The notes under the pieces are model-generated. The model saw only the letters and a list, made by a program, of their open reading frames with translations, was not told the DNA's origin and did not search any database. From a bacterium (lineage in GTDB: Bacteria > Patescibacteriota > Doudnabacteria > UBA920): a stretch of DNA of 64,000 nt. Shown piece after piece: positions 1 through 49,572 of the stretch. The translations under genes were made by a program, and so were the position numbers. Positions within the stretch are counted from its first letter, which is position 1. Each line of letters begins with the position of its first letter. The DNA lies in assembly GCA_021825655.1 (NCBI GenBank), contig JAKAGU010000005.1:12400-76399 (forward strand), in the 5' to 3' direction.

Positions 1-1162
1 TACGGTAATCCTGGTTCTGTCCGCGGGCGAGGGGTTCCGCAGCCTGATTAACGCCCAATTGGAAGCGTACGGCACTAATACGCTGTTTGTGGAAACCCGG
101 GTGCCGCCGACCACCAAGAACCGCAACGCCGGAGCGGCCTCGGCCGATACCAGCCGGGCAAATTCTCCAGTGGCGATTACTTCGTTTAAGAACCGCGACC
201 TGCAGGACATTAAGCAAATACCCAATGTAGTGAACGATTACGGCGTGGTGGTCGGACAGAAAGTTGTCAGCTATAAAGACGTGGATAAAAGTGTGATTTT
301 TTACGGCGCTTCGCCGGAACGGTTTGATATTGATAAGGGCACGCTGAAGGCCGGAAGATTTTTTTCCGTGGCCGAAAATACCGGCGCTGACCAGGTGGTA
401 ATACTTGGCAGCACGCTGGCCAGCGACTTGTTCGGCCAGGAGGACCCGGTGGGCAAACTTATCCGGGTAGGGGACTTGAATTTTGAAGTGATCGGTGTTT
501 ACAACCCGCGCGGCGGTTTGGGCGGGGACGAGGATAATACTTTGTATATGCCCCTGTTTACGGCCCAGAAAAAGCTTTTGGGCATCGATTACCTGCTCTT
601 TGCCATTGTGCAGGTGAAAGACACCAAGCTGGCGGACGCCACTGCTGAAGACATCAGGCAAGTGATGAGGCACAATCATGCCATTAAGGATGTGGACAAG
701 GATGATTTTTTGGTGCAGACCCAGGCCGACAGCCTGAACACCTTCAACACTATTTTTAACGGGATTACAATTTTATTGATTGCCATTGCCGCCATTTCCC
801 TGGTGGTGGGCGGCGTGGGGATTATGAATATTATGTACGTGGTGGTGACGGAAAGGACCGCGGAGATTGGTCTAAAAAAAGCGCTGGGCGCAAAAAGCTC
901 GGATGTGCTAAGTGAATTTTTAATTGAGTCTATTTTGGTGACCGTAATCGGCGGGGCCGTGGGCATATTTTTGGGTTCAGTGCTCGGCTGGCTGGTGTCT
1001 TTGGTGGCGACGGCCAGCGGCCTGTCGTGGAAATATACCGTGCCGTTTTACGCCGTTGCGTTAGGTTTCGGGGTTTCGGCTGTAATTGGCATTTTGTTCG
1101 GCGTATTGCCGGCGCGTTCGGCCGCCAAGCTCGACCCGATTGAAGCTTTGAGGTATGAATAA
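1..1162 (+). CDS. ABC transporter permease, MacB/FtsX family; 5' end lies outside the window
   Basis: The reading frame is open from the first base, with no stop before the annotated Met at 59. The C-terminal FtsX-type 4-TM region (GLKKALGA..., LFGVLPARSAAKLDPIEALRYE) is typical of MacB-like permeases. Confidence 0.8.
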   Translation, partial: TVILVLSAGEGFRSLINAQLEAYGTNTLFVETRVPPTTKNRNAGAASADTSRANSPVAITSFKNRDLQDIKQIPNVVNDYGVVVGQKVVSYKDVDKSVIFYGASPERFDIDKGTLKAGRFFSVAENTGADQVVILGSTLASDLFGQEDPVGKLIRVGDLNFEVIGVYNPRGGLGGDEDNTLYMPLFTAQKKLLGIDYLLFAIVQVKDTKLADATAEDIRQVMRHNHAIKDVDKDDFLVQTQADSLNTFNTIFNGITILLIAIAAISLVVGGVGIMNIMYVVVTERTAEIGLKKALGAKSSDVLSEFLIESILVTVIGGAVGIFLGSVLGWLVSLVATASGLSWKYTVPFYAVALGFGVSAVIGILFGVLPARSAAKLDPIEALRYE

Positions 1163-1250: not shown

Positions 1251-2483
1251 ATGAAAAAAATTATTGTGGTGGGGGCGGGGTTTGCCGGCCTGAATGCAAT
1301 TTTGGAATTGGAAAAACGTTTCCGGAAAAATCTGGAGGTTTCTTTGACTTTGGTCGATCGCGAAGACTACCACTTGTTTACACCCAACCTCTATGAAGTG
1401 GCCACGGCCGAAGAAGAGTTTACCAGCGTTGCTCAGGTGAAAAGCAGCGTGGTTTTGCCGCTATCCCAGATTATCGGCCGCAAGCGCATTGTTTTTATAA
1501 AAGGTGAGCTTACGGAACTGGATTCACAGGCGCGCAAACTTAAGGTGGGCATCCGCACCTTAGAGTATGATTATTTAATTTTGGCTTTGGGCGACCGGCC
1601 GGATTTTTCCCGGGTGGAAGGCGCTCAGGAATACGCGCTAACTTTAAGCGGCTTACCCGGCGCTTTGCGAATACGCAACGCGCTGGAGTTTGCGGTGCAG
1701 GCTGCCAGCCATGAAGTACAGAGAGGAACACTGCGTGTCGTGGTCGTGGGCGGCGGGTACGTGGCGGTTAAATTTGCGGGCGAGCTGAAATCTTTTTTGG
1801 ATATTTTATCGTGGAAATACGGCTACCCCAGGGAAAGACTGGAAATAATGATTGCGGAAAGTTCGGATAGATTAGTTACCGGCCTGGGGAAAGACTTCGG
1901 TCGCCAGGTATTAGAGAGGCTTACAGCTTTGGGTGTCAGGACCGAATTCCACCACCATGCAGTAAAATTTGACCACCACTTTGTGGAATTTTTAAACGGG
2001 GAGCGCATGAGCTACGATGTGCTGGTTTGGAGCCTGGGGACCGCTGCTTCCAGTCTGCCTGGCCCCATGGTCTTGCCTAAAACTTTGGCTGGACGACTGG
2101 AAGTGGATGAATATTTAAAGGTGAAGCAGGCGGCCAATATTTTTGCAGCCGGTAATATGGCCCAGGTGCTGGACAGGCACGGCCAGCCGGTGCCCCGAAG
2201 CGCTGCCGTGGCTGCGGAGCAGGGCAGGTACGTGGCGCAGGCCCTGACGTGTTTGATGCAAAACCAAAAACCCCGCGCGTATAGCCTCGGTTTTTACGCC
2301 GTGACCTTGCGCGTGGGCGGCAAATGGGGCGTGCTTCAAACGCGTCGCTGGTTACTGGCAGGCTATTTTGCCTATTGGGCGGATTTATATTTTCATTTCA
2401 GGCATTATTGGCGGCTCCTGGGTTTTGGACCGGCCGTGCGGTACGTTTTTCGGGAAAAAGAAATTTTTAGCCGCAACGATTAA
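1251..2483 (+). CDS. ndh: FAD-dependent pyridine nucleotide-disulfide oxidoreductase, type II NADH dehydrogenase-like
   Basis: N-terminal GxGxxG (IVVGAGFAGL) and a second dinucleotide fold (VVVVGGGYVAVKFAGEL); length and layout fit NDH-2. Confidence 0.7.
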   Translation: MKKIIVVGAGFAGLNAILELEKRFRKNLEVSLTLVDREDYHLFTPNLYEVATAEEEFTSVAQVKSSVVLPLSQIIGRKRIVFIKGELTELDSQARKLKVGIRTLEYDYLILALGDRPDFSRVEGAQEYALTLSGLPGALRIRNALEFAVQAASHEVQRGTLRVVVVGGGYVAVKFAGELKSFLDILSWKYGYPRERLEIMIAESSDRLVTGLGKDFGRQVLERLTALGVRTEFHHHAVKFDHHFVEFLNGERMSYDVLVWSLGTAASSLPGPMVLPKTLAGRLEVDEYLKVKQAANIFAAGNMAQVLDRHGQPVPRSAAVAAEQGRYVAQALTCLMQNQKPRAYSLGFYAVTLRVGGKWGVLQTRRWLLAGYFAYWADLYFHFRHYWRLLGFGPAVRYVFREKEIFSRND

Positions 2484-2497
2484 AAAACCTCGTAGAG

Positions 2498-4717
2498 CTA
2501 CGAGGTTTTTTTCTTATAGGGTTTTTTTGGTTTGGGCGGATTTTCTTTCCAATATTTCAAGGCTTCCTGCAGTTCAGCTTCGCTTTCCGGCTTTTTATTC
2601 ATAATAAAGTTGCAGTCCGGAAAACGATTGCAGGCATAGAAAGTTTTGCCCCGCCCGCGGCTCTTTCGTTCCACCACGTCGCCAACCTGGCAATTGGGGC
2701 ACTTAAAGCCGGTCTTGTTCCAGATTTTGGAGATGCCTTTGCATTTGGGGTAATCGACGCAACCCAGAAAGTAGCCGAAACGGCCCCGCTTTACTTCCAT
2801 TTCCTTGCCGCAGATCGGGCATTTTTCACCCCGGGTTTTTTCCGTCAGCTCTTTGATTTTGGCCGCTTCTTCCGGCAAGGGCTGGGTGGTCTTGCATTCT
2901 GGGTCGGAGCAGGCCAAGAATTTGCCCATGCGGCCGAATTTGATTACCATATTTTTCCCGCAGGTCGGGCAGATTACGTCGGTCATTTCCACCTGTTTTT
3001 CCACGGTGGCTTCTTTTTCCGTCAAATGTTGCTTAAAAGGCCCGTAGAATTCTTTACAGATTTCCGTCCAGCCGATTTTGCCTGCCGCAATGTCGTCCAA
3101 TTCTTCCTCAATGTGTGAGGTAAAGTTAATATCGACAATTTCAGGGAAGTTTTCCACCAACATGTCGTTGACCAGGGTGCCAATTTCAGTCGGCTGGTAT
3201 TTTTTTTCAACTTTTTCCACGTACTCGCGGTCTTGGATGGTGGACAGAGTGGGTGCGTAGGTCGAAGGCCGGCCGACCCCAGCCGCTTCCAGGGCTTTAA
3301 TCAGAGTGGCATCCGTGTAGCGCGCCGGGGGTTCGGTGAAATGTTGCTGCGGGGACAGCTGGTGCAGTTTAAGGTTTTCGCCGTTGTCGAGTTCGGGCAG
3401 GGTGTTTTCATCGTCTTCTTCGCTTTCCTCGTCGCGCCCCTCGGTGTAGGCCCGGATAAAGCCGTCGAATTTTACGGTCTGACCCGTGGCGCGGAAAGTG
3501 TAATTTTTTGCGCTAATGTCTGCCGCAGTCTGTTCTAAAACAGCGGGAGCCATTTGGCAGGCAATGGTGCGCTTCCAAATTAGGTTGTACAGCTTGTACT
3601 GGCCTTTATCCAAAAAGGTTTTTAGGCTTTCAGGCGTCCTGATTACGTCGGTCGGTCGGATGGCTTCATGGGCCTCTTGCGCCCCTTTGGACTTGTTAGT
3701 GTAAAACCGGGGTTTTTCCAGGGCGTAGCGTTCGCCGAATTCCTTTTTCACCACAGCTGCAATCGCAGACAGGGCCGAGGCCGCAAGGTTAAGGCTGTCG
3801 GTTCTCATGTAGGTAATCAAGCCCTGGCTGCCTTCTTCGCCCAAATCCACGCCCTCGTAGAGCTGCTGGGCAATAACCATGGTTTGTTTGGCCGACATGC
3901 CCAGCTTGCGCGCAGCTTCCTGCTGCAGAGTGGAGGTGGTAAAAGGCGGGGCAGGGTTCCGCGTGATTTCTTTTTTGCTGACGTTTGCGACCTGGTAGGC
4001 GGCGCCGGCCAGTTCTTTCAAAACGGTTTGCGCGGCCTGTTCGTTTTTTATTTCCAACTTACCGATGCTTTTGCCGTCTTTTTGGTGCAGCCTTGCCGTA
4101 AAGGTTTTTTTCTCGGCCAGTTTGGACAGTTCGGCTTCAATGCTCCAGTATTCTTCCCGTTTGAAGTTTTGGATTTCACGTTCCCTTTCCACTACCAGGC
4201 GGACCGCCACTGACTGCACGCGCCCAGCGGAAAGGCCGTAACGGATTTTGCGCCACAGGAAGGGGGAGAGTTCGTAGCCGACCAGGCGGTCCAGTACGCG
4301 GCGCGCCTGCTGGGCGTCTACCAGGTTCTGGTCAATGTCGCGCGGGTGTTCCAGGGCTTCGGCAATGGCGCTTTTGGTGATTTCGTGGAAAACTATCCGT
4401 TCCTTGGGTTTTTTTTCCAAACCCAAGGCTTGGATTAAGTGCCAGGAAATGGCTTCTCCCTCGCGATCTTCATCAGTGGCCAACACCACTTTGGGCGCTG
4501 TTTTGGCCAGGTTTTTCAGCTTGGCTACGGTTTCTTTGGCTTTGGCGGGTATTATATAGGTAGGGGTGAAGCCGTTCTCCACATCGATGCTCATTTTGCT
4601 TTTGGGCAAATCGCGCACGTGCCCCATGCTCGCTTCCACCTGAAACGCCCCGCCCAAAAAACGCGAAATGGTTTTCGCTTTGGTGGGAGATTCAACAATG
4701 ATTAAAGGCTTGGACAT
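2498..4717 (-). CDS. topA: DNA topoisomerase I
   Basis: Toprim N-terminus (LIIVESPTKAKTI), active-site region and multiple C-terminal C4 zinc ribbons (CPTCGK..., CPICGK..., CPNCQ...). Confidence 0.95.
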   Translation of the reverse strand: MSKPLIIVESPTKAKTISRFLGGAFQVEASMGHVRDLPKSKMSIDVENGFTPTYIIPAKAKETVAKLKNLAKTAPKVVLATDEDREGEAISWHLIQALGLEKKPKERIVFHEITKSAIAEALEHPRDIDQNLVDAQQARRVLDRLVGYELSPFLWRKIRYGLSAGRVQSVAVRLVVEREREIQNFKREEYWSIEAELSKLAEKKTFTARLHQKDGKSIGKLEIKNEQAAQTVLKELAGAAYQVANVSKKEITRNPAPPFTTSTLQQEAARKLGMSAKQTMVIAQQLYEGVDLGEEGSQGLITYMRTDSLNLAASALSAIAAVVKKEFGERYALEKPRFYTNKSKGAQEAHEAIRPTDVIRTPESLKTFLDKGQYKLYNLIWKRTIACQMAPAVLEQTAADISAKNYTFRATGQTVKFDGFIRAYTEGRDEESEEDDENTLPELDNGENLKLHQLSPQQHFTEPPARYTDATLIKALEAAGVGRPSTYAPTLSTIQDREYVEKVEKKYQPTEIGTLVNDMLVENFPEIVDINFTSHIEEELDDIAAGKIGWTEICKEFYGPFKQHLTEKEATVEKQVEMTDVICPTCGKNMVIKFGRMGKFLACSDPECKTTQPLPEEAAKIKELTEKTRGEKCPICGKEMEVKRGRFGYFLGCVDYPKCKGISKIWNKTGFKCPNCQVGDVVERKSRGRGKTFYACNRFPDCNFIMNKKPESEAELQEALKYWKENPPKPKKPYKKKTS

Positions 4718-7107: not shown

Positions 7108-7136
7108 TTGACAAAACCCTCAAAATGGTATATAAT
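7108..7136 (+). promoter_or_regulatory. sigma70-type promoter TTGACA-17-TATAAT
   Basis: Exact consensus -35 and -10 hexamers with a 17-nt spacer, reading into a non-coding interval. Confidence 0.55.
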
Positions 7137-7142
7137 ATTATA

Positions 7143-7343
7143 TCAGTATACGGTCAGAAGGAGTTTTGCTTAGTTTGTTTGTTTCTTGGATCCTACATGC
7201 AAGTAGCTCGAAACAGGTATGATCCCTCCTACTACTTGTTTTGGCATCAAGTAAAGGTTTGTAGGCGTTTGCTTGCGGCCTTTCACTTGCAGGTAGGGTC
7301 CTCTAAACAAACAATAAATCCCGCAGAGCGCGGGATTTTTTTT
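7143..7343 (+). ncRNA. Candidate ~200-nt structured small RNA (6S-like), promoter to terminator with no credible ORF
   Basis: Lies between the consensus promoter and the intrinsic terminator AAATCCCGCAGAGCGCGGGATTTTTTTT. The 5' segment (TTTGTTTGTTTCTTGGATCCTACATGCAAGT) is largely complementary to the 3' segment (ACTTGCAGGTAGGGTCCTCTAAACAAACAA), giving a long imperfect closing helix. Confidence 0.35.
7318..7343. terminator. Bidirectional intrinsic terminator, serving the sRNA candidate on + and pth on -
   Basis: Palindromic GC-rich stem CCCGCAGAGCGCGGG flanked by an A-run and a T-run. Confidence 0.6.
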
Positions 7344-7887
7344 ATACTCCGAGTTTTAAAAATTGGTCAACTTCATTTTTTACTTTGGGCAGCACCTCAG
7401 CGTCCAGCTGTGCCAGTTCCTGGGGAGTAAAGTTCTGCAGGACAAAGGCGTCGGTGGGCGGGTTCTTTTTGTCTATCCGGGTTTCAACCCCGATGCGCAC
7501 CCGGCTGAAGTTTTGGCTGCCCAGGGCGTCAATAATGCTCTGCACGCCATTGTGTCCGGCTGCCGAAGACCCCGTGCCGGTACGCAGCGCGCCAAAGGGC
7601 AAATCCACGTCATCGTGTAGAACCATCAGGTCATGTTCGGTATCCAGTTTGTAGTAGTGGCAGATTTCCGCCACCGCTTCGCCCGAAAGATTCATGTAAG
7701 TCAGGGGCTTGATAAAAAAGATTTTCAGGCTGCCGAAATGCAGTTCGCAGATTTGGGCTTGGAACCTGGACTGGCAGGCCAGGGGGTGGATGCCTTTTAA
7801 GAAAAAATCCACAGCCAAAAATCCGGCGTTGTGCCGCGTTTTTTGGTATTTGATTTCGGGATTGCCCAAGCCGACAACGAATTTCAT
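7342..7887 (-). CDS. pth: peptidyl-tRNA hydrolase
   Basis: MKFVVGLGNPEIKYQKTRHNAGF, the canonical Pth N-terminus. Confidence 0.9.
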   Translation of the reverse strand: MKFVVGLGNPEIKYQKTRHNAGFLAVDFFLKGIHPLACQSRFQAQICELHFGSLKIFFIKPLTYMNLSGEAVAEICHYYKLDTEHDLMVLHDDVDLPFGALRTGTGSSAAGHNGVQSIIDALGSQNFSRVRIGVETRIDKKNPPTDAFVLQNFTPQELAQLDAEVLPKVKNEVDQFLKLGV

Positions 7888-11189: not shown

Positions 11190-11792
11190 ATGCCCGAGGA
11201 AACAAACAATCAGGAAAACCAAAATCAGAGCCCTGTCGCATCGTTTGGTTTATTTTTATGGGATTTGGTCAAAATTTTTCTTTTGGCCATGATTATTATC
11301 CTGCCGGTCAGGACTTTTTTAGCTGAACCGTTTATGGTTTCCGGCTCTTCCATGATCCCGAATTTCCATGACAAGGACTATTTAATTGTGGACCGCCTGT
11401 CTTACCGGATACATAATCCCCAAAGAGGCGATGTGATTGTGCTTAAGTTTCCCAAAGACACGACCCAATACTTTATTAAGCGTATAATCGGCCTTCCGGG
11501 CGAAACTGTAATTTGCGAACAGGGCCGGGTGGCGGTGGAGGCGTCTGGAGAAGCCGCGCCGCAAATACTGGCTGAAACCTACCTGCCCAGCACCGCACTC
11601 ACCCAAAACTGCAAACCCAAGCAGGTTTTAGGCAGTGACGAGTATTTCGTGCTTGGCGACAACCGCATGGCCAGCAGCGATTCCCGGGTCTGGGGGATTC
11701 TACCCAAAGATGATATTGTCGGCCGGGTTTGGCTCCGAATTTTTCCTTTCCATGACTTTGGGTTTATGGCGACACCGAGTTACGCCCAGTAG
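11190..11792 (+). CDS. lepB: signal peptidase I
   Basis: N-terminal TM, catalytic Ser region (VSGSSMIPNF), KRIIGLPGE and GDNRMASSDSR boxes. Confidence 0.85.
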   Translation: MPEETNNQENQNQSPVASFGLFLWDLVKIFLLAMIIILPVRTFLAEPFMVSGSSMIPNFHDKDYLIVDRLSYRIHNPQRGDVIVLKFPKDTTQYFIKRIIGLPGETVICEQGRVAVEASGEAAPQILAETYLPSTALTQNCKPKQVLGSDEYFVLGDNRMASSDSRVWGILPKDDIVGRVWLRIFPFHDFGFMATPSYAQ

Positions 11793-11840
11793 CCTTCAGC
11801 GCTTTCTTTTTTAGTCTAAGCATTCAGCTTTTCCATTACC

Positions 11841-13136
11841 ATGGGTCGTCCAAAAAAGAACCCGACCGCCTCAGGCGGTTATGTGTCCAAAAAAATCCAG
11901 AGCCTGCCGGGCTCTACGGATATTATTACCTCCGCCGATGCGCTGTGGGATATTTTGCTGAAGCGTTTGTCCAGGACCGCCCGGGCGTACGGCTTTAACC
12001 GGGTGGAATCGCCGCTTTTGGAAGAGTCGCGCCTGTTTGAAAGCGCGGGCGCTTTTAACCCCGGGCAGGCAGTGGCCATTTCGGACCAAGCTTATGGCCG
12101 GCCGGTTGTGCTCCGGCCCGCGTTGTTGCCGTCAGTGCTCCGCGCCTATGTCCAGCAAAAAATTTACGAAACTTCTCCTGTCAGCAAATGGTGGTACAGC
12201 GGCTTTACCGTAGCCCAGAAAGAAAAAAGCCAGGCCGCATCGGATTTTAATTTTGGTTTTGAGGTGTTCGGCACGTTTACCCACTTAACCGAAGCCCAGC
12301 TGATTTCCGGCGTCTGGGAGCTGTTCCAGTCTTTGGGGCTCAAGGATTTGGCTTTGGAAATCAACAGTATCGGGGAAGAGGCTTGCCAGCGGGTTTACGA
12401 AGAGGCCTTGGCCGGATACCTGAGCGGCAAAAAATATGAGCTGTGCGACGCCTGCAGCGAGCACTTGAAAGGCAGGGTGTTGAACGTGTTGCGCTGTGAA
12501 AATTTGGACTGCCAGGCTTTGACAGCCGAAGCCCCGACCATTTTGGACTATTTGGATCCGAAAAGCCATAAGCATTTTACCAACATCCTCGAAGCTTTGG
12601 ATGAAATGGGGATTCCTTACCAGCTTAACCACCTGTACAGCGGACCCGAGGGCCACAGCCGCACTAATTTTGTGATAAAGCAAAAAACCAAAACAGGCAG
12701 CCTGGTGCTGGGCGAAGGCGGTTACCATGACGGCGTAATTCAGAACATTTGCGGGAAAAATTTTTGTTCTTTTGGTTTTTACGGCAGCCTGCAGAAAGTT
12801 TACGACCTGCTGACGGCCAGCCGGGTGACGGTTTCCCGCGAGCAGTCCAGCGAAGTTTTTCTGGTGCCTTTGGGCGAACTGGCTTCCAAAAAGGCCCTGC
12901 GGCTGTTCAGGGATTTGATCAGCAGCAAAATTTCTGTTTACGACCATTTTGGCGACGCGGGTGTAAAGAACCAGCTCAAAGCGGCCCAAACCTTCAAAGC
13001 CCCCATTGCCTTGATTATGGGGCAGAAGGAAGCTATGGATGAAATGGTGATTTTGAGGGATGTAAAATCCGGCATGCAGGAAGTTATTTCTTATGATAAA
13101 ATAGTGGAAGAAGTGAAAAAGCGCCTAGGCAAGTAA
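11841..13136 (+). CDS. histidyl-tRNA synthetase-like class II aaRS paralog with apparently degenerate catalytic motifs
   Basis: HisRS-like architecture: catalytic core, insertion domain (EINSIGEEACQ) and a C-terminal anticodon-binding domain. Conserved motifs read LRPALLPSV instead of LRPEGTA, there is no Arg-rich motif 2, and motif 3 reads GGYHDG instead of GGRYDG. Confidence 0.6.
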   Translation: MGRPKKNPTASGGYVSKKIQSLPGSTDIITSADALWDILLKRLSRTARAYGFNRVESPLLEESRLFESAGAFNPGQAVAISDQAYGRPVVLRPALLPSVLRAYVQQKIYETSPVSKWWYSGFTVAQKEKSQAASDFNFGFEVFGTFTHLTEAQLISGVWELFQSLGLKDLALEINSIGEEACQRVYEEALAGYLSGKKYELCDACSEHLKGRVLNVLRCENLDCQALTAEAPTILDYLDPKSHKHFTNILEALDEMGIPYQLNHLYSGPEGHSRTNFVIKQKTKTGSLVLGEGGYHDGVIQNICGKNFCSFGFYGSLQKVYDLLTASRVTVSREQSSEVFLVPLGELASKKALRLFRDLISSKISVYDHFGDAGVKNQLKAAQTFKAPIALIMGQKEAMDEMVILRDVKSGMQEVISYDKIVEEVKKRLGK

Positions 13137-15691: not shown

Positions 15692-15703
15692 TAAATTAAA
15701 GTT

Positions 15704-15733
15704 AAAAAAACCCTCAATTTGAGGGTTTTTTTA
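15704..15733. terminator. intrinsic terminator after ftsA
   Basis: AAAAAAACCCTCAAATTTGAGGGTTTTTTTAAT hairpin with a T-run. Confidence 0.65.
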
Positions 15734-15806
15734 ATGCCATACCGCCCGAATTATAAGTAGTTATGTGAAAACTTGTTTTAAATAAGGGTAAAATTAGGCA
15801 GGACTA

Positions 15807-15835
15807 TTGACAATTGGCCATTTTTTTGCTATAAT
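15807..15835 (+). promoter_or_regulatory. consensus sigma70 promoter TTGACA-17-TATAAT for the GC-rich gene downstream
   Basis: Perfect hexamers with a 17-nt spacer; the ~260-nt leader contains hairpins (AGGTGTCCT...AGGACACCT; CAGAGGTCCTCTG plus a T-run). Confidence 0.6.
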
Positions 15836-15911
15836 AGTGGGTCAAAATTATCAGTGTATTTATGCCGGTAATTTTGGCCAATTGTACCTTTTTATTCCGT
15901 AGGAGGAATAA

Positions 15912-16040
15912 GTGCTACTTAATTTAGAGGTGTCCTTTGCGACAAGCAGGCGATTTTTCGTCTTTTTGTGGCAGAGGACACCTACGTGTGTTCCGAAGCC
16001 GCGCAGAGGTCCTCTGGCGATTTTTTCTGGGAGCGTTTAA
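15912..16040 (+). CDS. possible 42-aa leader peptide/uORF (GTG start) in the 5' leader
   Basis: Strong AGGAGG Shine-Dalgarno 5 nt upstream of GTG; the ORF spans both leader hairpins. It is below the ORF-track length cutoff. Confidence 0.25.
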   Translation: MLLNLEVSFATSRRFFVFLWQRTPTCVPKPRRGPLAIFSGSV

Positions 16041-16095
16041 CAGCGTTTCCAAAACCGGAATGTAGTTTAGACACAGACTCCATGGAGATGATTCG

Positions 16096-17400
16096 ATGAA
16101 ACGATTGACCCTGATGTTCGCCTTCGTGCTGGCGCTGGCCATCACGTTTTCTCACTCGGCTCTCGCGCAGTTTGGCGGAGCCGAAAACCCGGGGATCCAG
16201 GCCCAGGCAGATGCGGCACAGGCGAAAGCCGATGCCGCGGCTGCCAAGAAGCAGGCCGACGATCTCAAGAAAGAAGTGGACACGCTCAAGAAGGGCGGCG
16301 GCCTCACATCCGACAACACGTGGATGTGGTGGTTGCTGCTGCTGATTCCGATCGGTCTCGGGGCATGGTGGTTCTTTTTCCGTAATCGTGGAGAGGGGCA
16401 ACCGCCTATCGTTCCCGAACCGGCTGCGCCTGCGGAACCCGAGAATCCGAACCCGCCCGCTCCCGACAACGGTGGTGGCGAACCCCCGGCTCCTCCGGCG
16501 CCCGCACCGCAACCCGAACCGGCTGCGCCTGCGGAACCCGAGAATCCGAACCCGCCCGCTCCCGCTCCTAACCGCAACCCGAACCCGGCACCCATTCTGG
16601 ACGACGCAGCCAAAAGCAGGCTGAGGCAGACACTTCCGGTGATTGCTTTCGTGTTGCTTTTCAGTGGTCTCGCTTCTTCCGTCCGCGCCGCGAACTGCTT
16701 CAACACCGCGGCCCCGGTCGGCGGCGCCTCTCCGGTGCCGATCGCTATTGTGAAGGAATCCAACACCCTTCGCTGCAACAACTCCAGCCCTCTCACCGTG
16801 TTTGACGAGAGCGGCCGGGCAGTTGCCACGGGGACGCGGACTATCACCTTCACTCCCACAACCTCCGGCCGTTACCATATCCGCGCAGGCAGGGTCACCA
16901 TCAGTCCGCTGGTGGTCACGGACCGCTACGGCGCGTTCCTGATCAACGGCTCTGTGGATCTGTCCCGCGGTTCGGTCTCTTCGGCTGACGCCACGGCGCG
17001 CACTCAGGCCAAGCAGGCTGATGTCAAGGCCAACGCGGCAATGAGCCGGGTGACCACTACCGAGAAGTCGGTGGGGACGCTCAGTGACCAGATCAAGGCC
17101 ATCGCCGCCGCGCACGACCGACTGGAGGAGCGCGTCTCCGCTCTGGAAAGCCGGCCGGCCCCCCGGGTCGACCTGGCTCCTTTGGAGCAGCGCGTGGCCA
17201 CGCTCGAAGCCGAGCTGGCGCGAGTGAAGGCCACGGCCAACACTGCGCTCAGTACCGCGCAACAGGCAGATGCCAAGGCTACCGATGCCAACACCCGGTA
17301 TGAAGAGATGGGCCTTGCCCGGTTTAAGACCGGCCTGTTCCGTTCCAAAACCGTGGTTGAGGCCGTCGAAGACGCCAAAGCCAAAGCCAGCAAACAGTAG
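16096..17400 (+). CDS. secreted/membrane protein with a signal peptide, TM helix, proline-rich tandem repeats and C-terminal coiled coil; GC-rich
   Basis: Signal peptide MKRLTLMFAFVLALAITFSHSALA, TM WMWWLLLLIPIGLGAWWFFF, duplicated EPAAPAEPENPNPPAP module, Ala/Glu/Arg-rich heptad C-terminus. The region 15982-17496 is visibly GC-rich (about 60-65% by eye) against ~45-50% flanks. Confidence 0.7.
   Translation: MKRLTLMFAFVLALAITFSHSALAQFGGAENPGIQAQADAAQAKADAAAAKKQADDLKKEVDTLKKGGGLTSDNTWMWWLLLLIPIGLGAWWFFFRNRGEGQPPIVPEPAAPAEPENPNPPAPDNGGGEPPAPPAPAPQPEPAAPAEPENPNPPAPAPNRNPNPAPILDDAAKSRLRQTLPVIAFVLLFSGLASSVRAANCFNTAAPVGGASPVPIAIVKESNTLRCNNSSPLTVFDESGRAVATGTRTITFTPTTSGRYHIRAGRVTISPLVVTDRYGAFLINGSVDLSRGSVSSADATARTQAKQADVKANAAMSRVTTTEKSVGTLSDQIKAIAAAHDRLEERVSALESRPAPRVDLAPLEQRVATLEAELARVKATANTALSTAQQADAKATDANTRYEEMGLARFKTGLFRSKTVVEAVEDAKAKASKQ
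16417..16564 (+). repeat. Two identical 49-nt direct repeats (16417-16465 and 16516-16564), period 99 nt, in frame
   Basis: GAACCGGCTGCGCCTGCGGAACCCGAGAATCCGAACCCGCCCGCTCCCG occurs twice and encodes the duplicated Pro-rich module. Confidence 0.8.
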
Positions 17401-17522
17401 CACTACAATCGCCGTTCCCCGCACGCCTGTAAAAAGGCCGGCGGGGGACACACACTCGAAAAAAGGGCCGGCCTCACAGCTTGCCCTTTTTTCCATGCCT
17501 GTTTTTTATTTTGGTCAACCGA

Positions 17523-17658: not shown

Positions 17659-17982
17659 ATGAACCCTTCATTAACCTCCGCACAATATGTTGAAGATTTT
17701 TTGCAGGCGTTGTTAACCGAAGCTGGTATGGACACGGTTTCGGCTGAAGTCAAAGAACAGATGCTGACGGACTTAAGGGCCCGTTTGCAGGACCGGCTGT
17801 TCGGTACCATTGTTATGAATTTGAGCGACGGCAAGCTTACCGAATTCCGCGAATTGGTGGACAACGGCGGCTCGCAGGACGAGTTGGAAAAATTTGTGGA
17901 TGCCAATGTACCCAATTCGGCTGAAGTGTTTGCCCAGGCCATGATGACTTTTCGTAGCGATTATTTAGGCTTACAGGAATAA
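17659..17982 (+). CDS. small acidic helical protein (107 aa), first gene of the giant-protein operon
   Basis: D/E-rich, no TM; lies 26 nt upstream of the giant ORF. Confidence 0.6.
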   Translation: MNPSLTSAQYVEDFLQALLTEAGMDTVSAEVKEQMLTDLRARLQDRLFGTIVMNLSDGKLTEFRELVDNGGSQDELEKFVDANVPNSAEVFAQAMMTFRSDYLGLQE

Positions 17983-18008
17983 GCCTTTTTATTTTACCCA
18001 AATTAACT

Positions 18009-21000
18009 TTGCCCACTATGCCAGAAGGAGAAAATAGGGTTATTTTATCTTCCGATCTTGAGCCTAAGCCCAGCCGCGAACAACGCCAGGGGCAAGAGGG
18101 GAAAGAACAGCAAAAAGAAAAACTGAAAACGCGGGAATACTTGGACCGGGCGGTTTTGGAATTGAAAAATTTGCTAAAAGATTTGCCCCGAGACTCCAAA
18201 GAAGGCAAGCGCGCAGAGCATACCCTTAGGGCGGTGGAGTGGGCTTTGGGTAATTTGGGGAAAAATGGCGCGGGTGAAGGCAAGTACCGCCTGGAAATGA
18301 AAGACCACGAAGGCAAACCGGCCAAGTGGCCGGAGGGCAGTCCAGCAGTGCAGGACGAAGGCGTGCCCGTGGATGAGTTGATTGATTTGCTGAAAGGCCG
18401 CGCCCAAGAGCTGAATACTGAAGTCAGAAAAAAGGACAGCGTCAAAAAGAAAAAGCAAGCAATGGATGCACTGTGGGAGCGGTATAATTTGGCGCACGAG
18501 GTGGATTTAAAAGACCAGACGCACGATAAGGCCTGGGTGTATAGCCAGTGGGAGCAAGCCAAAAAGGCCTATGAGGCCGCCCAGGAAGCCTATGAATTGG
18601 GGTATGATGCAAAAGGCAAAGAGCTGGACGAACTGGCCGGGGAGCTTTACAAGCGGAGCGAAACTCACTTTCAGGCGCATTTCAGCCATGAGCTGCCTTT
18701 AAGCAAGGAAGAGTCCGACAAGCAGAATGTGCGTACTACCCATGAGGCGTATTTAATTCACCATGACTACCGCAAAACAAAAAACAAAGATCAGGATTAT
18801 CAGGCGGCCATGGATGCCATGGGCAAAAGAAGGGAACTGATTTTGGAAGAAAAGAAAGAGACTGAGATAATCCAGGGGCCGACGGGTCCGACTGAGGGTC
18901 CTGTGCAAGGCCCCACAGAAGGCCCCACAGAATTTATTAAAGGCCCAGAGCGCGTGGCTATTGTTAATGCCGAAGCGCAGGTAGAGCTTTTGGCCCGTAA
19001 GCGCGCCAACGAGAGGCTGACGGAAATGTTCAATGGCGCCGGACGGCTTAAAAAAATGTGGTATCGCGCCTGGGAAGAAGGCTACCGCCAGCAGCTGATT
19101 GACGAAGAGCGCAAGAAAATTTTAGGCGAAGGCAACAAAGCCAACTGGCTAAAGCGCAAACTGTTCGGGGCAAAGGAGTTTGATGCCACGGGCAAGAAAA
19201 ATTTGTTTGCCGGTACGGCTTCGGAAGGCGAAAATAAAACCGAGCTAACGGCTTTGGCTGAGCGGTTTTCCAAAGGCTACATTAAAGAATCGGAAGGCGA
19301 ACAGAAAGAGCAGCTGCAAGACCCCGAATTCAACAGCCAGCTCAATGACTTGGTTTTTAAATATGTGGAAGGCGGACTGTCGGACGAAGAATTTGAGAAG
19401 CAGAAAGATGAGATGATTGCGGCTATCGGTAAAAAATATCCGGAGAGTTTTGCGGCCGGCAAATTGACAGCGGACAATTTTTTGGAGGCGGCGCGGGAGT
19501 TTAAGAAAATCCACGAGCATTCCAAAAAGCTGGCCCGGGTGGATATCAATCTGGGCATAGATTTGGGCAATGCCAAGCAGGCCATCAAAACCCAGGCTAA
19601 CCTAAAATGGACGGACAGGATGATTGCCAAGCTCCAGAAATACCCCGGCATTGGCCATGTGTTTACTCCGGGCAGCGTAGGGTTTGGGGTTTCCGTGGGT
19701 GGCTATTTATTTAAAAAACCTTTGTATTTTGTGGGCGGCGCGGCGGGCGCGGGCGGCATCTTAGGCGGCATGCGGCGCAATTTTGAGCAGAAGCGCGATT
19801 TGGAAATGCACCGCATTGAAGCGGCCATGGGCAATAAGATTGCGGACTATGGACCGGCAGCCAAGCGCCGCCAGGAAATGGAAAAATATGTGCATGAAAT
19901 GAAAAATGCCTCCGAAGTGAGCGCGGAATTGGCCAGTTTGCGCGCGGCTTTCGAAGCCGGGCCCAGCCCTGAAAATGCGGCGGCTTTAACCAAGCTTTTG
20001 GCGGAAACGGAAGCGCGTATGTCGCTTTCCGAAGAACGGCAGCGGGATTTGATTTCTTTTGACGGCGAAACTACGCTGGAGCGCGGCCGGCTGTTTTTGC
20101 TAAAAGAACTCGCCGAGGCCAAAGTAAAGCTGGGTAATAAGGGCTTTGATTCCAATATTGCCGGCAGCCAGGACTATAAAGATTTTATGGCTTCTTTGGG
20201 CGGCAATATGGACAAATTGGAAAAAAGCGAAAAGTACAAGCGCTGGAAAGAAAACACGAAAGCCGCAGCCGTGGGCGCAGTTACCGGATTGGTGGTGGGC
20301 GGCTTGGCCCAGCAGGGGGCAGCGGAAATCGGCGACCGTGTTTCCTGGCTTTCCTGGCTGCGGCCGGGAGGCCGGGCTACGGGCATGGAGCGGCTTTATC
20401 ACTTTGTTAAAGGCGATTTGCCGACCGCGCCTTCGGGTGCGGGTTTGGCTGAAGTGGTGGGGATTGCCGGCGCGCACGGCACTGTTAAGATTGACGGCTC
20501 CACTGAGCTGGTCCAAAATCGGTCAACCGGCTTATGGAATCTGGTGGATAAGGCCGACCATACCAAAATTTTGGCGGAAATGGATATAGATCCCGCATCA
20601 GGACAGCTTACGCCCCGGCCGGGGAGCTTTGACCATAACCTTATTGATTTTTCTTCCCGCACCGCGGGCGGCGGGCACCGGAGCGTGGCCGAATGGATGC
20701 AGGACAGCCGCGCCGGCTTGCCGAAGGGGGCAAATATGGAGCATTTGCATACGGAGATGTTTTACGACAACGACACCCCGGCGCCAAAGTTTGATTTCAA
20801 CGAACTTCGGTTTTACATGCACGCAGATCCTCACGGCAACATTACCATGGATGCGGGCAAGATCCGGGAATACCTGGAAGAGAATTTTTCCCAAGTGTCG
20901 GGTTCCAGGCATGGCGAGCGGGCGTTGGATATTGTCAGTGCCTTTAAAAGCGGGGAGATAAAAATTGCCATCGCACCTGACCCGGACCATCCGGGAGAAA

Positions 21001-22694
21001 TGTTCACTTTCCAGCCAAATGCCGCAACGGGTGAATATGTGCTGCCTGCAGGCAGTGAAGTTGCCAAAATGTTCGGTGTGGACGGCTCGGGCAATGTTAC
21101 CTATAAAGGCAACGGCTTTATGGGCATGATAGAAAACCCCAAAGGCAGTGCCGTTGCCCGCTGGATAAACAGTATCCGTGGCAACGGCGAAGCCATTGAA
21201 ACAGGTCCGGGCCAGCGCGTGATTAATGAGATTACCAGGAAGTATCCGCGCGAATGGTGGATGCCCTGGATTGGCATTTTCAGGCGCAAGGCTCTGGAGC
21301 AAAAGCAGAAAAAAGAATTGGGCGGCGAACAGAAGGGGAAGGGCTCGCCTGGCCAGGAAGGCGAAGGCCACGGCAATGAAAAGCCGATTATTGTGGATAC
21401 GGAAGGCAAAAAAATTGAACCAAAGTTTATCTACTTTGAGGAAGAGGAAGAAACCGAGGAAGCGATAAAGAAAAAGCTGCTGGGTAAAAAGTTTAAACAG
21501 AAGGTGGCTGTGGATACGCGCGGCCAGAAAATTACCAATGACCGCAAAGATTACGGCAAAGACTACCCGCAGAAGTTTCCGTTTAAGGACGAAAAGCAAA
21601 TGGCCGATTATCTGGTCAACGTGCTCAAGGGGACGGGCAAATTTTTTGCCCGGGCAGAAGATTTGGATGCGCTGAAAAAATTGGACCAGGCTGGCAAGGT
21701 GAAGTTTTTGGAGGAGCGGATTAAAAAAGCCCGCACGACCGGCCTGGAGCTGCGCGACGGAGTCATTAAGCCGGAGGCGGCCCAGGAGCTGACCAGTTTC
21801 GTGCTGAACCGGGTCAATGAAGAGTTTGCCAAGTACGGGCAGGCGGGCCGGAGCGAAATGCCGGATGCCAGCAAAGTGCATATTGTCAGCATTTACGAGT
21901 TCCAGGCCCAGGCCGAATTGGGCGGCCGGGACGCTTTGGGCCTGTGTTTTACCCAAAACGGCGAAATTTTCATCAATTATGAGCTAATAAAAGAGGCGGC
22001 GGCCAACAGCGACGAATTTGTCCGTGAATTAAAGCGCACAATTGCCCACGAAGTGGTCCATGGGGGCGCGGCGGCCAACTATTGGGCGTTTGAACAGGAG
22101 GCCGACGGCAGCGACGGGGTGTTTGTGCAGAGGCGCACGGGTTTAAAAATGGTCCGCAGGGAAAACGCTTCCACCGACCTGGTCCGTGAGCGCGGCCGTG
22201 CGCTGAACGAAGCGGTTACTGAAACCCTGGCTAAGGATATTACCGACAGGATATACAAAGACGAAGGCGCCAAACAGGTTACTTACCGCAGCGAGCCGTA
22301 CCAAGATGAACGCAATGTGCTGAAGCTCATGCAGGAAAAATTCCATATTCCGTTTACGGCCTTTGCGGAAGCCGTAGTCAACCGCAAAGCCTTAAAAAAT
22401 TTGGCAGAACTTCTGGACGGCAAGAGCCAGGAAGGTAACAAGGTGGAGCGGCCTCAGTTTATGTCTTTGCTTATGTCGATTATGGATTACGAGCACAACG
22501 AGCATCACTTCGATTACGCCAAGACCAAGCAGCTTATTCAGGGGGCTAAGGGCCTGCAGATAACCCCGGAGATGAAATTGGCTTTCCCGGCATCGCTTTT
22601 GGACCGCGCCGGCAACATCAAAGCCAGTCTGGTTGAGCAGTACGACTTGGTAGACATGGATGCAGTAAGAAAACTCCGTCCCAAAGCCGCCTAA
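18009..22694 (+). CDS. giant protein (1561 aa): charged N-terminus, two glycine-zipper hydrophobic segments, C-terminal HExxH zincin-like motif
   Basis: K/E-rich low-complexity N-terminus with GPTEGP repeats. Gly-zipper stretches GSVGFGVSVGGYLFKKPLYFVGGAAGAGGILGG (~19670-19770) and AAAVGAVTGLVVGGLAQQGAAEIG (~20266-20335). HEVVH at 22047-22061 in the context TIAHEVVHGGAAANYWAFEQE. No signal peptide. Confidence 0.8.
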   Translation: MPTMPEGENRVILSSDLEPKPSREQRQGQEGKEQQKEKLKTREYLDRAVLELKNLLKDLPRDSKEGKRAEHTLRAVEWALGNLGKNGAGEGKYRLEMKDHEGKPAKWPEGSPAVQDEGVPVDELIDLLKGRAQELNTEVRKKDSVKKKKQAMDALWERYNLAHEVDLKDQTHDKAWVYSQWEQAKKAYEAAQEAYELGYDAKGKELDELAGELYKRSETHFQAHFSHELPLSKEESDKQNVRTTHEAYLIHHDYRKTKNKDQDYQAAMDAMGKRRELILEEKKETEIIQGPTGPTEGPVQGPTEGPTEFIKGPERVAIVNAEAQVELLARKRANERLTEMFNGAGRLKKMWYRAWEEGYRQQLIDEERKKILGEGNKANWLKRKLFGAKEFDATGKKNLFAGTASEGENKTELTALAERFSKGYIKESEGEQKEQLQDPEFNSQLNDLVFKYVEGGLSDEEFEKQKDEMIAAIGKKYPESFAAGKLTADNFLEAAREFKKIHEHSKKLARVDINLGIDLGNAKQAIKTQANLKWTDRMIAKLQKYPGIGHVFTPGSVGFGVSVGGYLFKKPLYFVGGAAGAGGILGGMRRNFEQKRDLEMHRIEAAMGNKIADYGPAAKRRQEMEKYVHEMKNASEVSAELASLRAAFEAGPSPENAAALTKLLAETEARMSLSEERQRDLISFDGETTLERGRLFLLKELAEAKVKLGNKGFDSNIAGSQDYKDFMASLGGNMDKLEKSEKYKRWKENTKAAAVGAVTGLVVGGLAQQGAAEIGDRVSWLSWLRPGGRATGMERLYHFVKGDLPTAPSGAGLAEVVGIAGAHGTVKIDGSTELVQNRSTGLWNLVDKADHTKILAEMDIDPASGQLTPRPGSFDHNLIDFSSRTAGGGHRSVAEWMQDSRAGLPKGANMEHLHTEMFYDNDTPAPKFDFNELRFYMHADPHGNITMDAGKIREYLEENFSQVSGSRHGERALDIVSAFKSGEIKIAIAPDPDHPGEMFTFQPNAATGEYVLPAGSEVAKMFGVDGSGNVTYKGNGFMGMIENPKGSAVARWINSIRGNGEAIETGPGQRVINEITRKYPREWWMPWIGIFRRKALEQKQKKELGGEQKGKGSPGQEGEGHGNEKPIIVDTEGKKIEPKFIYFEEEEETEEAIKKKLLGKKFKQKVAVDTRGQKITNDRKDYGKDYPQKFPFKDEKQMADYLVNVLKGTGKFFARAEDLDALKKLDQAGKVKFLEERIKKARTTGLELRDGVIKPEAAQELTSFVLNRVNEEFAKYGQAGRSEMPDASKVHIVSIYEFQAQAELGGRDALGLCFTQNGEIFINYELIKEAAANSDEFVRELKRTIAHEVVHGGAAANYWAFEQEADGSDGVFVQRRTGLKMVRRENASTDLVRERGRALNEAVTETLAKDITDRIYKDEGAKQVTYRSEPYQDERNVLKLMQEKFHIPFTAFAEAVVNRKALKNLAELLDGKSQEGNKVERPQFMSLLMSIMDYEHNEHHFDYAKTKQLIQGAKGLQITPEMKLAFPASLLDRAGNIKASLVEQYDLVDMDAVRKLRPKAA

Positions 22695-48787: not shown

Positions 48788-48839
48788 TATTAGTTACAGT
48801 TCCAATTTAGTCAAAAAAGGCTGACGTTTTCTCAACTTC

Positions 48840-48863
48840 GGTTTGAACATCGTTTCATAGGGA
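48840..48863 (+). repeat. right copy of the 24-bp direct repeat GGTTTGAACATCGTTTCATAGGGA
   Basis: See the left copy. Confidence 0.8.
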
Positions 48864-49102
48864 ATATCTGAAATAAATTATATTATTTGATTGTAGGAAC
48901 GATAGGAAAGCAGAAAATACCTAGTTTTGGCTTTCGCCTGCGGGTTTTTTCTCTTCTGGCTATACAAGTTTTTACCCCGGAACCCAAGCCCTGGACAACC
49001 GGCATAAAATTCCTCTAATTTGTAGTTGATTTATTGGAATAGTGCTATAATATGTAGGCATTTGACCCAAGATAATTAACCCATAAAAGGAGACCTACGC
49101 AT

Positions 49103-49396
49103 ATGAACAAGCTGCAATTTACGGAACAATTGGCGGCCAAATTGGGCATTACCGTCAGCGAAGCCGAAAGGTATTTGAACACCTTTATCCAAATGGTTTA
49201 CGATGTGCTTAGAAACGGTGATAAAGTAAACATTTCAGGCTTTGGCCAGTTCAGCGTATCCCATCGCGCTCCCAGAATCGGTGTTAACCCCCGGAACCCT
49301 ACCCAGAAGATTACCATTCCGGAATTGAATACGCCGAAGTTCAAGGCTGGCGAGGCTTTCAAGGAAGCGGTGAAGCTGAGAAGCCCCCAGGGTTAG
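49103..49396 (+). CDS. hupB: DNA-binding protein HU
   Basis: HU/IHF fold with beta-arm (GFGQFSVSHRAPRIGVNPRNPTQKITIP); extended -10 TGCTATAAT upstream. Confidence 0.9.
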   Translation: MNKLQFTEQLAAKLGITVSEAERYLNTFIQMVYDVLRNGDKVNISGFGQFSVSHRAPRIGVNPRNPTQKITIPELNTPKFKAGEAFKEAVKLRSPQG

Positions 49397-49487
49397 GAAT
49401 TTTTATTAATTTTAGTCAGAGCGAAAACCCCCGGAAAGGGGGTTTTATTTTTTCTTTGAAAATGTTATAATCAGCACACGAAAAAAT

Positions 49488-49562
49488 GCGGGTATCGTAT
49501 AATGGTTATTATCTCAGTTTTCCAAACTGATGATGCGGGTTCGATTCCCGCTACCCGCTCCA
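49488..49562 (+). tRNA. tRNA-Gly (anticodon UCC)
   Basis: Acceptor GCGGGTA/TACCCGC, anticodon stem TCAGT/ACTGA with loop TTTCCAA, T-arm GGTTCGATTCC, CCA encoded. Confidence 0.9.
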
Positions 49563-49572
49563 AGGCAATCCT

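Follow-up and report, generated by a model that had tools for sequence, protein, structure and literature searches.

Riboswitches and other cis-regulatory leaders of bacterial genes are joined to interchangeable expression platforms, and leader-peptide attenuators are exemplified by the trp, pyrBI, erm and cat leaders. In the cry3A messenger RNA (mRNA), an element resembling a Shine-Dalgarno (SD) sequence within the 5' untranslated region (UTR), known as STAB-SD, does not initiate translation but binds 16S rRNA and blocks RNase J1 (PMC4113751). The slp mRNAs, which encode S-layer proteins, attain high expression by means of strong promoters and structured, stabilising 5' UTRs (PMC10221546). 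Here we describe the 5' leader of a gene for a putative cell-envelope protein, encoded next to ftsA in a 64-kb stretch of DNA (64,000 nucleotides of contig JAKAGU010000005.1, hereafter the window). The window is a piece of a Candidatus Doudnabacteria (Patescibacteria) chromosome, as judged from its FtsA protein, whose closest relatives among species-representative genomes come nearly all from Candidatus Doudnabacteria or unclassified Patescibacteria metagenome-assembled genomes. The leader is best explained as a new RNA family that is specific to Doudnabacteria and is inherited vertically as a cassette with its gene.

The leader was compared with related loci, which are designated here by L numbers, as proteins are by P numbers. 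Between the window and L006, whose FtsA proteins are 91% identical, the promoter and leader are 84.6% identical; the corresponding values are 80.9% for the ftsA coding DNA, 67% for the first 423 nucleotides (nt) of the envelope gene and 38% for the spacer upstream of the -35 box. The comparison with L001 gives 82% for the distal leader, 83% for ftsZ, 60% for the envelope gene and 41% for the spacer that comes next. The leader matches ftsA and ftsZ in its degree of conservation. A core profile (nhmmer) finds the leader motif in more distant species and also in L046 and L047, two loci that were reached via protein homologues. The covariance model R1 recovers 14 complete leaders with E values from 6e-17 to 6e-6, one copy per locus and always on the ftsA strand. 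Truncated copies are present in L038 (3' end, also recovered by R1) and L001 (5' end), and R1 detected no second copy anywhere in the window or the 41 sources to which it was applied. All 14 complete leaders are located downstream of ftsA on the same strand and have a TTGACA -35 box at 17-nt spacing from the -10 box, for which 13 have TATAAT and L031 has TATGGT. They range in length from 206 to 463 nt, and each is followed, 35-119 nt past the long hairpin that we call HP3, by a gene whose product has a hydrophobic, signal-peptide-like N-terminus. The motif was seen in at least 12 of the 29 Doudnabacteria-like loci fetched via FtsA, and the others either lack it or carry it outside the flank that was fetched. 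Similarity among the downstream proteins is no more than mosaic, so the leader is better conserved than the gene it serves.

Searches of RNA family collections and of other sequence sources did not connect the leader to any described element. At the gathering threshold, the 4227 models of Rfam 15 match the window only at three tRNAs and a S-adenosylmethionine (SAM) riboswitch, all of them elsewhere in the window. Region 15700-16200 searched against Rfam at E <= 10 returned sub-threshold chance matches (best 25 bits, against a gathering score of 47), and six related loci returned tRNAs only. A metagenome scan with the leader core pattern gave one chance match, in an unrelated AT-rich coding region (L045); viral contigs contained no leader copy. 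Nothing relevant was found in the literature on Doudnabacteria RNA motifs or on an element of this kind. An earlier note on this DNA had described a consensus promoter followed by a structured leader with a terminator-like hairpin and a T-run, and had asked whether the leader is conserved; the promoter and the structure are both present, and the leader is conserved in at least 14 lineages with base-pair covariation. These comparisons make it very probable that we are dealing with a real, conserved and structured leader family.

The coordinates of the leader elements, the gene and its product are collected in Table 1. The window contains two perfect sigma-70 promoters (12/12 positions), compared with 0.00 expected from shuffles, and one of them precedes the leader, from which point 254 untranslated nt lead to the envelope gene. 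The whole leader folds at -91.4 kcal/mol (z = -4.9), and the part that extends to the terminator-like hairpin (15842-16030) at -71.9 kcal/mol (z = -6.8). Folding predicts a 5'-proximal hairpin, HP1, for each of the 14 complete leaders, in nine of which it starts at the first or second nt; its sequence and loop vary. The second hairpin, HP2, would present or sequester the GGAGG box according to the predicted folds. Its stem shows compensatory changes in L015, L016, L012, L031 and L046, as read by eye from the sequence, and its form varies, from a local hairpin with a (GU)AGGAG loop in some lineages to a helix between block A and GGAGGAA in others. A variable AU-rich linker separates block B from HP3, whose apex measures 29-199 nt in the relatives (31 nt in L016, where the arm was placed by hand). 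Two further helices were considered and rejected: a helix joining the HP3 5' arm to the SD-like box or to block A, for which there is no excess complementarity (mean z = -0.28), and a consistent helix between blocks A and B, for which inspection found no register that holds across lineages.

Table 1. Features of the leader, the envelope gene and its product (window positions in nt; protein positions in amino acids, aa; ORF, open reading frame; uORF, upstream ORF).
Feature	Position	Strand	Description
Bidirectional terminator hairpin of ftsA	15702..15734	+	16-nt arms, 100% complementary; A and T runs flanking
Sigma-70 promoter	15807..15835	+	TTGACA-17-(TG)-TATAAT, perfect, with TG extension; predicted start about 15842
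HP1, 5'-terminal hairpin	15843..15876	+	GUCAAAAUU.../...AAUUUUGGC; starts at +2
Block A, pyrimidine block	15884..15892	+	consensus GUUCUUUAA, here GUACCUUUU; conserved
HP2	15892..15911	+	TTATTCC-GTAGGA-GGAATAA; AGGAGG box 15901-15906 in loop and 3' arm
Block B	15912..15920	+	consensus RNG-UUACUU, here GUGCUACUU; first triplet is the proposed uORF start
Proposed 42-codon uORF	15912..16040	+	GTG start 5 nt after AGGAGG; not conserved as a coding frame
HP3, long hairpin	15928..15983	+	26-nt arms; base of 12 base pairs, 15929-15940 with 15971-15982 (GGUGUCCUUUGC/GCAGAGGACACC)
Terminator-like hairpin	16000..16019	+	CGC-G-CAGAG GUC CUCUG GCG; -10.1 kcal/mol; A, then U6 at 16021-16026
Second clade-specific hairpin	16029..16050	+	GGGAGCGUUU AACA... 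GCGUUUCC; enclosed by UGUUCCG/CGGAAUG helix
GGAG SD of main gene	16084..16087	+	8 nt before ATG; kept in L006 and L001
Envelope protein gene	16096..17400	+	434 aa; open in sense in all homologues
Antisense shadow ORF	15982..17496	-	504 aa; frame broken in every homologue
Pro-rich loop repeat	16414..16465 and 16513..16564	+	52 nt, 100% identical, period 99 nt, in frame
Conserved 3' UTR	17401..17493	+	GC-rich hairpin 17414-17449 and intrinsic terminator 17458-17493
Putative signal peptide	aa 1-24		translation ...SHSALA/QF, MKRLTLMFAFVLALAITFSHSALA/QF
Predicted helical ectodomain	aa 32-66		from translation and model
Predicted Trp-rich transmembrane segment	aa 75-97		followed by RNR
Pro-rich loop	aa 98-169		about 70 residues; holds the duplicated module
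Second transmembrane or signal-like segment (predicted)	aa 170-197		ends ...SSVRA/AN; model helix 170-189
Predicted beta-sandwich with 2 Cys	aa about 199-275		about 80 residues
Ala-rich helical tail (predicted)	aa 296-434		about 140 residues

The reading that we favour, at a little short of an even chance, is a lineage-specific, cis-acting leader of a highly expressed and fast-diverging envelope protein, with a mechanism centred on mRNA stabilisation. A consensus sigma-70 promoter would drive a long structured 5' leader, composed of the 5'-terminal hairpin, the pyrimidine block, a GGAGG box that lacks a conserved start codon, the AAACGUUACUU block and the long hairpin, and behind it the gene for a fast-evolving Ala/Pro-rich envelope protein. 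We infer that this leader would act in cis on its own mRNA, where HP1 and a 30S subunit docked at the SD-like box would shield the transcript from 5'-end-dependent decay in the manner of STAB-SD; such shielding would sustain very high expression. The 3' arm of HP3 resembles an SD sequence and may compete for a pyrimidine segment downstream, and the opening of the expression platform would be set by this competition. For the window clade, the platform would be a weak intrinsic terminator with the HP3 3' arm as antiterminator, and in other clades the partner of the arm would be a pyrimidine segment that is apparently able to pair with the real ribosome-binding site.

The covariation was measured in the base of HP3, for which 95.8% of the cells in the 14 complete leaders are paired, compared with 39-52% in slid controls; the 3' arms were located as the best complement, which inflates this percentage but not the compensatory pattern. 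That pattern consists of changes on both sides in seven of the 12 pairs (18 cells), which none of 500 shuffles equalled; the 14 sequences are related, and such shuffle statistics are not probabilities. The way in which the arms were located is one of several points that weigh against the stabiliser-centred reading. The next-best sites for the 3' arm scored 9-11 of 12, and in L016 the search had landed within the coding region, after which the arm was placed by hand. Predictions leave the SD-like box partly paired, its probability of being unpaired ranging from 0.03 to 0.80, and the seven leaders measured have it 53-111 nt away from the predicted 5' end, with a larger distance in L028. No RNase J or other 5' exonuclease is encoded in the 64-kb window. 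Finally, blocks A and B are unpaired yet strongly conserved, which fits a specific ligand or protein site better than a generic stabiliser.

This last point leads to the most serious rival, which we consider possible though clearly on the unlikely side: the leader would be a true regulatory switch that responds to a ligand, a protein or the 30S subunit, with blocks A and B, HP2 and the base of HP3 as its sensor and the state of HP3 transmitted to a lineage-specific platform, namely terminator and antiterminator in the window clade and anti-SD and SD elsewhere. In its favour, highly conserved unpaired blocks stand beside covarying helices, and a conserved sensor is combined with an HP3-to-AUG stretch that differs in length between leaders (35 to 119 nt) and may or may not include a terminator. 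The terminator-like hairpin and its U6 are identical in the window, L006 and L001 and are confined to the window clade; a U-run of five or more after HP3 is missing from nine of the 14 complete leaders, in which HP3 and the AUG are 35-70 nt apart. When the 5' arm is omitted, the 3' arm of HP3 pairs with the downstream segment better than shuffled arms do in 14/14 leaders (mean z = -1.83). In the window, GCAGAGGAC (15971-15979) is predicted to be able to pair with GUCCUCUGG, the 3' half of the terminator, with a gain of -9.2 kcal/mol (z = -3.3), and this makes an antiterminator geometry plausible in the window clade. The predicted folds of L046, L013 and L022 suggest that the arm's partner there, a pyrimidine segment, could pair with the real SD instead.

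A number of observations stand against a switch. There is no Rfam family match and no candidate ligand, and the downstream gene offers no metabolic clue. The 5' arm of HP3 has no excess upstream complementarity (mean z = -0.28), no internal anti-HP3 partner is evident, and HP3 is predicted to be closed essentially always. The predicted accessibility of the ribosome-binding site is intermediate (0.24-0.60) and not clearly off. The architecture of the leader permits a switch, and nothing identifies what would flip it. The attenuation-type control that had been suggested for this leader is partly supported: a terminator-like hairpin and a predicted antiterminator pairing are present, both restricted to the window clade; the uORF on which it relied is not conserved, and neither a ribosome-dependent nor a ribosome-independent trigger emerged. 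Stabilisation and switching are not mutually exclusive. A bolder version of the latter, to which we assign a somewhat smaller chance than to a switch in general, is that the leader represents a new class of RNA switch of Doudnabacteria, and thus of the Candidate Phyla Radiation (CPR), that tunes a hypervariable major surface protein within the division cluster. The pyrimidine block, the GGAGG loop, the AAACGUUACUU block and the HP3 base would then read free 30S subunits, a protein or a metabolite, and would signal to interchangeable platforms, a terminator in the window clade and an anti-SD elsewhere.

Leader-peptide attenuation, in which translation of the proposed uORF through HP3 and the terminator would decide read-through, is very unlikely. 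An AGGAGG box, a 5-nt spacer and a GUG do form a plausible start site in the window clade, and a ribosome that covered the 5' arm of HP3 would release the 3' arm to act as antiterminator. Of the 15 lineages, 14 have GGAGG as the SD-like box and one has GGGGG, and the spacing of the box to block B is 4-7 nt in 13/15 lineages, a start-site-like distance. However, the triplet at the uORF start is GUG in only three of the 15 lineages (window, L006 and L046) and ACG in eight, GCG in three and GAG in one. The frame closes after 4-8 codons in 10/15 lineages, where no terminator is reached, and its length ranges from 4 to 144 codons. In L006 the ORF (41 codons) is open only through a pair of -1/-2 indels that rewrite about 10 residues, and the substitutions between window and L006, read off the alignment, are all non-synonymous. 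Since all three plus-strand frames hold ORFs of 42-43 codons across the window leader, an open frame in this region is uninformative. The start triplets, early closure, indels, substitutions and three open frames indicate that the constraint acts on the RNA and not on a peptide, and the uORF of the earlier note is not upheld. The terminator is also weak when folded alone (z = -0.6). The stop codon of the mini-frame falls no more than 6 nt from the HP3 foot in five lineages, a position that may be due to chance in the AU-rich linker. A second uORF candidate (15968/15986-16099, ATGA over the main start) was rejected too: its changes between window and L006, as read from the sequences, are non-synonymous, it stops early in L006 and L001, and it has no counterpart in other clades; the frame begins with ATG in L006 and L001 and with GUG in the window.

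The probability is slightly lower still that the transcript from this promoter is a separate small RNA, about 185 nt long with its end at 16026, and that the envelope gene would be expressed only by occasional read-through or from another start. The perfect promoter, the stable fold of 15842-16030 and the hairpin with U6 would be in line with such an RNA, as would the window's other perfect promoter, from which an independent structured RNA, about 200 nt long and ended by a terminator, seems to be driven. Against it, the nine leaders that lack such a U-run retain both promoter and motif, and a signal-peptide gene follows HP3 directly at 35-119 nt; between 15836 and 16095 the envelope gene was found to have no further promoter, and conservation is unbroken from the terminator to the start codon. 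The region of that other promoter (7108-7346, plus strand), which holds the only other perfect TTGACA-17-TATAAT, is of interest in its own right. The roughly 200 nt that follow it are without a long ORF and adopt a long rod-like fold (-76.1 kcal/mol, z = -6.7) that ends in a terminator (CCCGCAGAGCGCGGG and T8). It has no Rfam family match and is a candidate stand-alone small RNA, possibly 6S-like.

The product of the gene behind the leader is a putative cell-envelope protein that is predicted to span the membrane twice, based on its translation and a structural model. Domain boundaries were read from the translation and from the secondary structure of an AlphaFold2 model based on a 6-sequence alignment; this model is poor (pLDDT 47.8, pTM 0.23) and was therefore used for secondary structure alone, with no fold comparison. 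The signal peptide was assigned by eye from MKRLTLMFAFVLALAITFSHSALA/QF, and two helices of the model (75-97 and 170-189) correspond to the hydrophobic segments. Translation and model secondary structure agree with the architecture that had been proposed from the sequence, namely a signal peptide, a Trp-rich transmembrane segment, a Pro-rich module, a second hydrophobic segment and a helical tail, and the same layout is found in P0001, P0004, P0005, P0032 and the proteins of L009-L028. The perfect repeat in the Pro-rich loop has the period and identity first described for it, and is 52 nt long instead of 49; relatives carry different Pro-rich tandem repeats in the loop. In L027 the loop between the hydrophobic segments contains a Cys-x2-Cys...Cys-x2-Cys pattern that resembles a zinc ribbon, which suggests that the Pro-rich loop is cytoplasmic and that both ends of the protein are outside.

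Searches for relatives of the protein gave a small yield. With an exhaustive HMMER profile search, 34 proteins among 1.84 billion representatives came up at E < 1e-3 and five at E < 1e-10, and most of the 34 are low-complexity or short coiled-coil matches. A word-index search with the whole protein gave at least one match, Pro/Ala-rich words filling the 8000 candidates considered, and a profile of the C-terminal half gave five. Against Pfam, the window protein has nothing at threshold (best NET2A, 17.5 bits against a cut-off of 33.1, E = 0.004), and it lacks a lipobox. A precomputed PF11839 match is on record only for P0035, a fragmentary homologue. A TITFTPxxSGxYxI stretch aligns with the repeated domains of another surface protein, P0006. 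At 17150-17215 of the window (residues about 354-385) we observed a coiled-coil motif, LESRPAPxVDLxPLExR, that is repeated in unrelated long proteins (13 stretches in P0003) and is also matched over 30-45 residues on three IMG/VR viral contigs (L049-L051); it may be a widespread repeat unit of fibrous proteins. Downstream of the gene, the two hairpins of the 3' UTR fold at -46 kcal/mol (z = -4.2); this UTR is 84.5% identical to that of L001, and the spacer after it 41%.

The envelope gene is located between ftsA, from which the cassette is separated by the ftsA terminator hairpin, and a DUF5663 gene followed by a giant-protein gene and ftsZ. The near neighbours encode YqeY, FtsA, a DUF5663 protein, a 1561-aa protein without any Pfam domain above threshold, and FtsZ, and the genes further out in the window include those for ribosomal protein S21, HisRS, topoisomerase I, GroEL, RelA/SpoT and, behind the SAM riboswitch, metK. 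The exact 434-aa protein was found on several independent assemblies with the gene order unchanged, and this exact locus is present in ERZ27237554, GCA_027424815 and GCA_021840085. The locus is syntenic in L001, L006, L046 and L048, 12 further species have the leader-gene pair downstream of ftsA, and the relatives that share position and leader have FtsA proteins 68-91% identical to that of the window. P0001 (L001) and P0004 (L046) fill the same interval between ftsA and the DUF5663, giant-protein and ftsZ genes. In close relatives (L001, L002 and L046), as in the window at 17659-22694 (plus strand), the DUF5663 gene and then a gene for a protein of 1558-1607 aa, in which no Pfam domain reaches threshold, lie between the envelope gene and ftsZ. 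Window and L001 are 60% identical in the giant protein and 89% in the DUF5663 protein, and nothing relevant was found in the literature on DUF5663. In relatives, the stretch from ftsA to the DUF5663 gene is a hot spot of variation, where the leader-gene cassette is kept nonetheless. It contains a minus-strand 420-aa ORF in L013 (11445-12707), transposase-like by eye, and AbiEii-type toxin genes in L046 (5487-6110, minus strand, and 11459-12085, plus strand). L047 has tandem genes at 319-1500 and 2253-3347 (393 and 364 aa), with the leader motif before the second only; the second encodes the homologue P0005, and the first equals P0032 in length.

The GC content of the envelope gene had been taken as a candidate sign of horizontal transfer. 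The segment 15982-17496 is indeed GC-rich; its limits are those of the minus-strand shadow ORF and not of the real gene at 16096-17400. That ORF, considered as a gene, was rejected, given that it is open only in this genome and broken in homologues. GC content is 0.60-0.65 in the 500-nt windows of 16001-17500, compared with 0.42 and 0.41 in the flanks and 0.513 in the whole window. We calculated the GC content expected from the amino-acid composition and the codon usage of 37 other window genes, typical genes having a GC of 0.52-0.55. The envelope gene has 0.642, compared with 0.611 expected, so that about 70% of the excess comes from its Ala/Pro/Gly/Arg-rich composition (Ala 17.5%, Pro 9%) and window codon usage. 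At third codon positions (GC3), the gene has 0.734, compared with an expected 0.667 (z = 3.2), which is unexceptional among the other window genes, housekeeping genes included (z = -3.1 to +4.2). The genes behind the 14 complete leaders have a GC of 0.53-0.64 at loci of 0.41-0.54, each above its own locus, and the equivalent genes in 13 other lineages have a GC of 0.53-0.63 and a GC3 of 0.57-0.73. Comparison with window averages confirms a GC content above that of the window, and composition explains most of the excess. GC-richness is mostly a by-product of amino-acid make-up plus a mild third-position bias, and the latter could reflect expression-linked codon bias.

A recently acquired foreign gene is accordingly the least probable of the alternatives, extremely unlikely and already largely refuted: the abrupt AT-rich borders, the GC and GC3 values, the tiny size of the protein family, and the insertion sequence (IS) element and toxin genes found between ftsA and the DUF5663 gene in some relatives could be cited for it, but the GC content is native across lineages and synteny is conserved, which rules out recent horizontal acquisition, the gene has no adjoining mobility genes, integrase or tRNA genes in the window, and the viral contigs hold no full-length relative of the protein, only the coiled-coil matches mentioned above. 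A better candidate for horizontal transfer than the GC-rich gene is a low-GC island at 47492-50091 (GC 0.34-0.43, GC3 0.29-0.45), which contains two ORFs (431 and 172 aa) without a Pfam match and a tRNA gene at 49488-49559.

Two other observations were made elsewhere in the window. The SAM (S-box) riboswitch at 50156-50260 (plus strand, 55.3 bits, above the gathering score) directly precedes metK at 50306-51499 (plus strand). A 1170-aa ORF at 59152-62664 (plus strand), with an unusual GC content of 0.54 at second and 0.47 at first codon positions and no Pfam match, may be a low-complexity envelope protein or a shadow frame.

Patescibacteria, or CPR bacteria, are uncultured organisms with reduced genomes that are thought to live attached to host cells. 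To our knowledge, almost nothing is established about their surface biology and gene regulation, and the phylum is poorly covered by Rfam. A tightly conserved RNA element in front of a fast-changing protein suggests that this locus is important and probably highly expressed, a surface-protein expression site within the division gene cluster. For RNA biologists, the leader is a candidate new RNA family with covariation support. It also marks a likely major envelope protein, which may determine interactions with hosts or phages. More generally, a GC-rich gene in a genome of moderate GC content can be fully native.

The protein resembles two known types of envelope component. As in Lpp-type alanine zippers (PF11839), its C-terminal 140 residues are predicted to form Ala-rich helices, whereas the window protein is below every Pfam threshold and lacks a lipobox. 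Its likeness to Ig-like beta-sandwich surface domains consists in the TITFTPxxSGxYxI stretch, which aligns with the repeated domains of P0006; the fold in the window protein is seen only in the low-confidence model. The Lactobacillus slpA S-layer gene offers a parallel for the leader as well, since it combines a strong promoter with a long stem-loop 5' UTR to which mRNA stabilisation and high expression of an abundant surface protein are credited (PMC10221546). In both cases the downstream proteins diverge quickly; the two leaders have no sequence or structural homology, and the window protein, predicted to span the membrane twice, is not a known S-layer protein.

Compared with the trp, pyrBI, erm and cat attenuators, the window clade has four segments overlapped by an SD-preceded ORF, and its second segment (GCAGAGGAC) is predicted to pair either with the first or with the 3' half of the terminator. 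Unlike in those systems, the start of the ORF is gone in 12/15 lineages, there are no regulatory codons, the terminator is absent from most lineages and the substitutions look non-coding. The leader differs from riboswitches in matching none of the 4227 Rfam models, in having no aptamer-type multi-helix junction and in preceding a gene for a structural envelope protein; like them, it has a covarying conserved 5' domain and a downstream module that varies, terminator in one clade and predicted ribosome-binding-site sequestration in others. The closest parallel to the mechanism that we favour is the STAB-SD of cry3A in Bacillus thuringiensis, to which SD-like stabilisers in other Gram-positive 5' UTRs are related. 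The Doudnabacteria box differs from it in being embedded in a larger conserved structure (blocks A and B, HP2 and the covarying HP3), in being predicted to be partly paired and in belonging to a patescibacterium, where it is known from sequence and predicted folds. In both cases, an SD-like purine box is present far upstream of the gene (129 nt in cry3A, 190 nt here) in the leader of a gene with a strong promoter, and no usable start codon follows the box in 12 of the 15 lineages here, GUG being present in the window, L006 and L046. Docking of the 30S subunit at this box, as proposed for STAB-SD, would protect the transcript against 5'-to-3' decay (PMC4113751).

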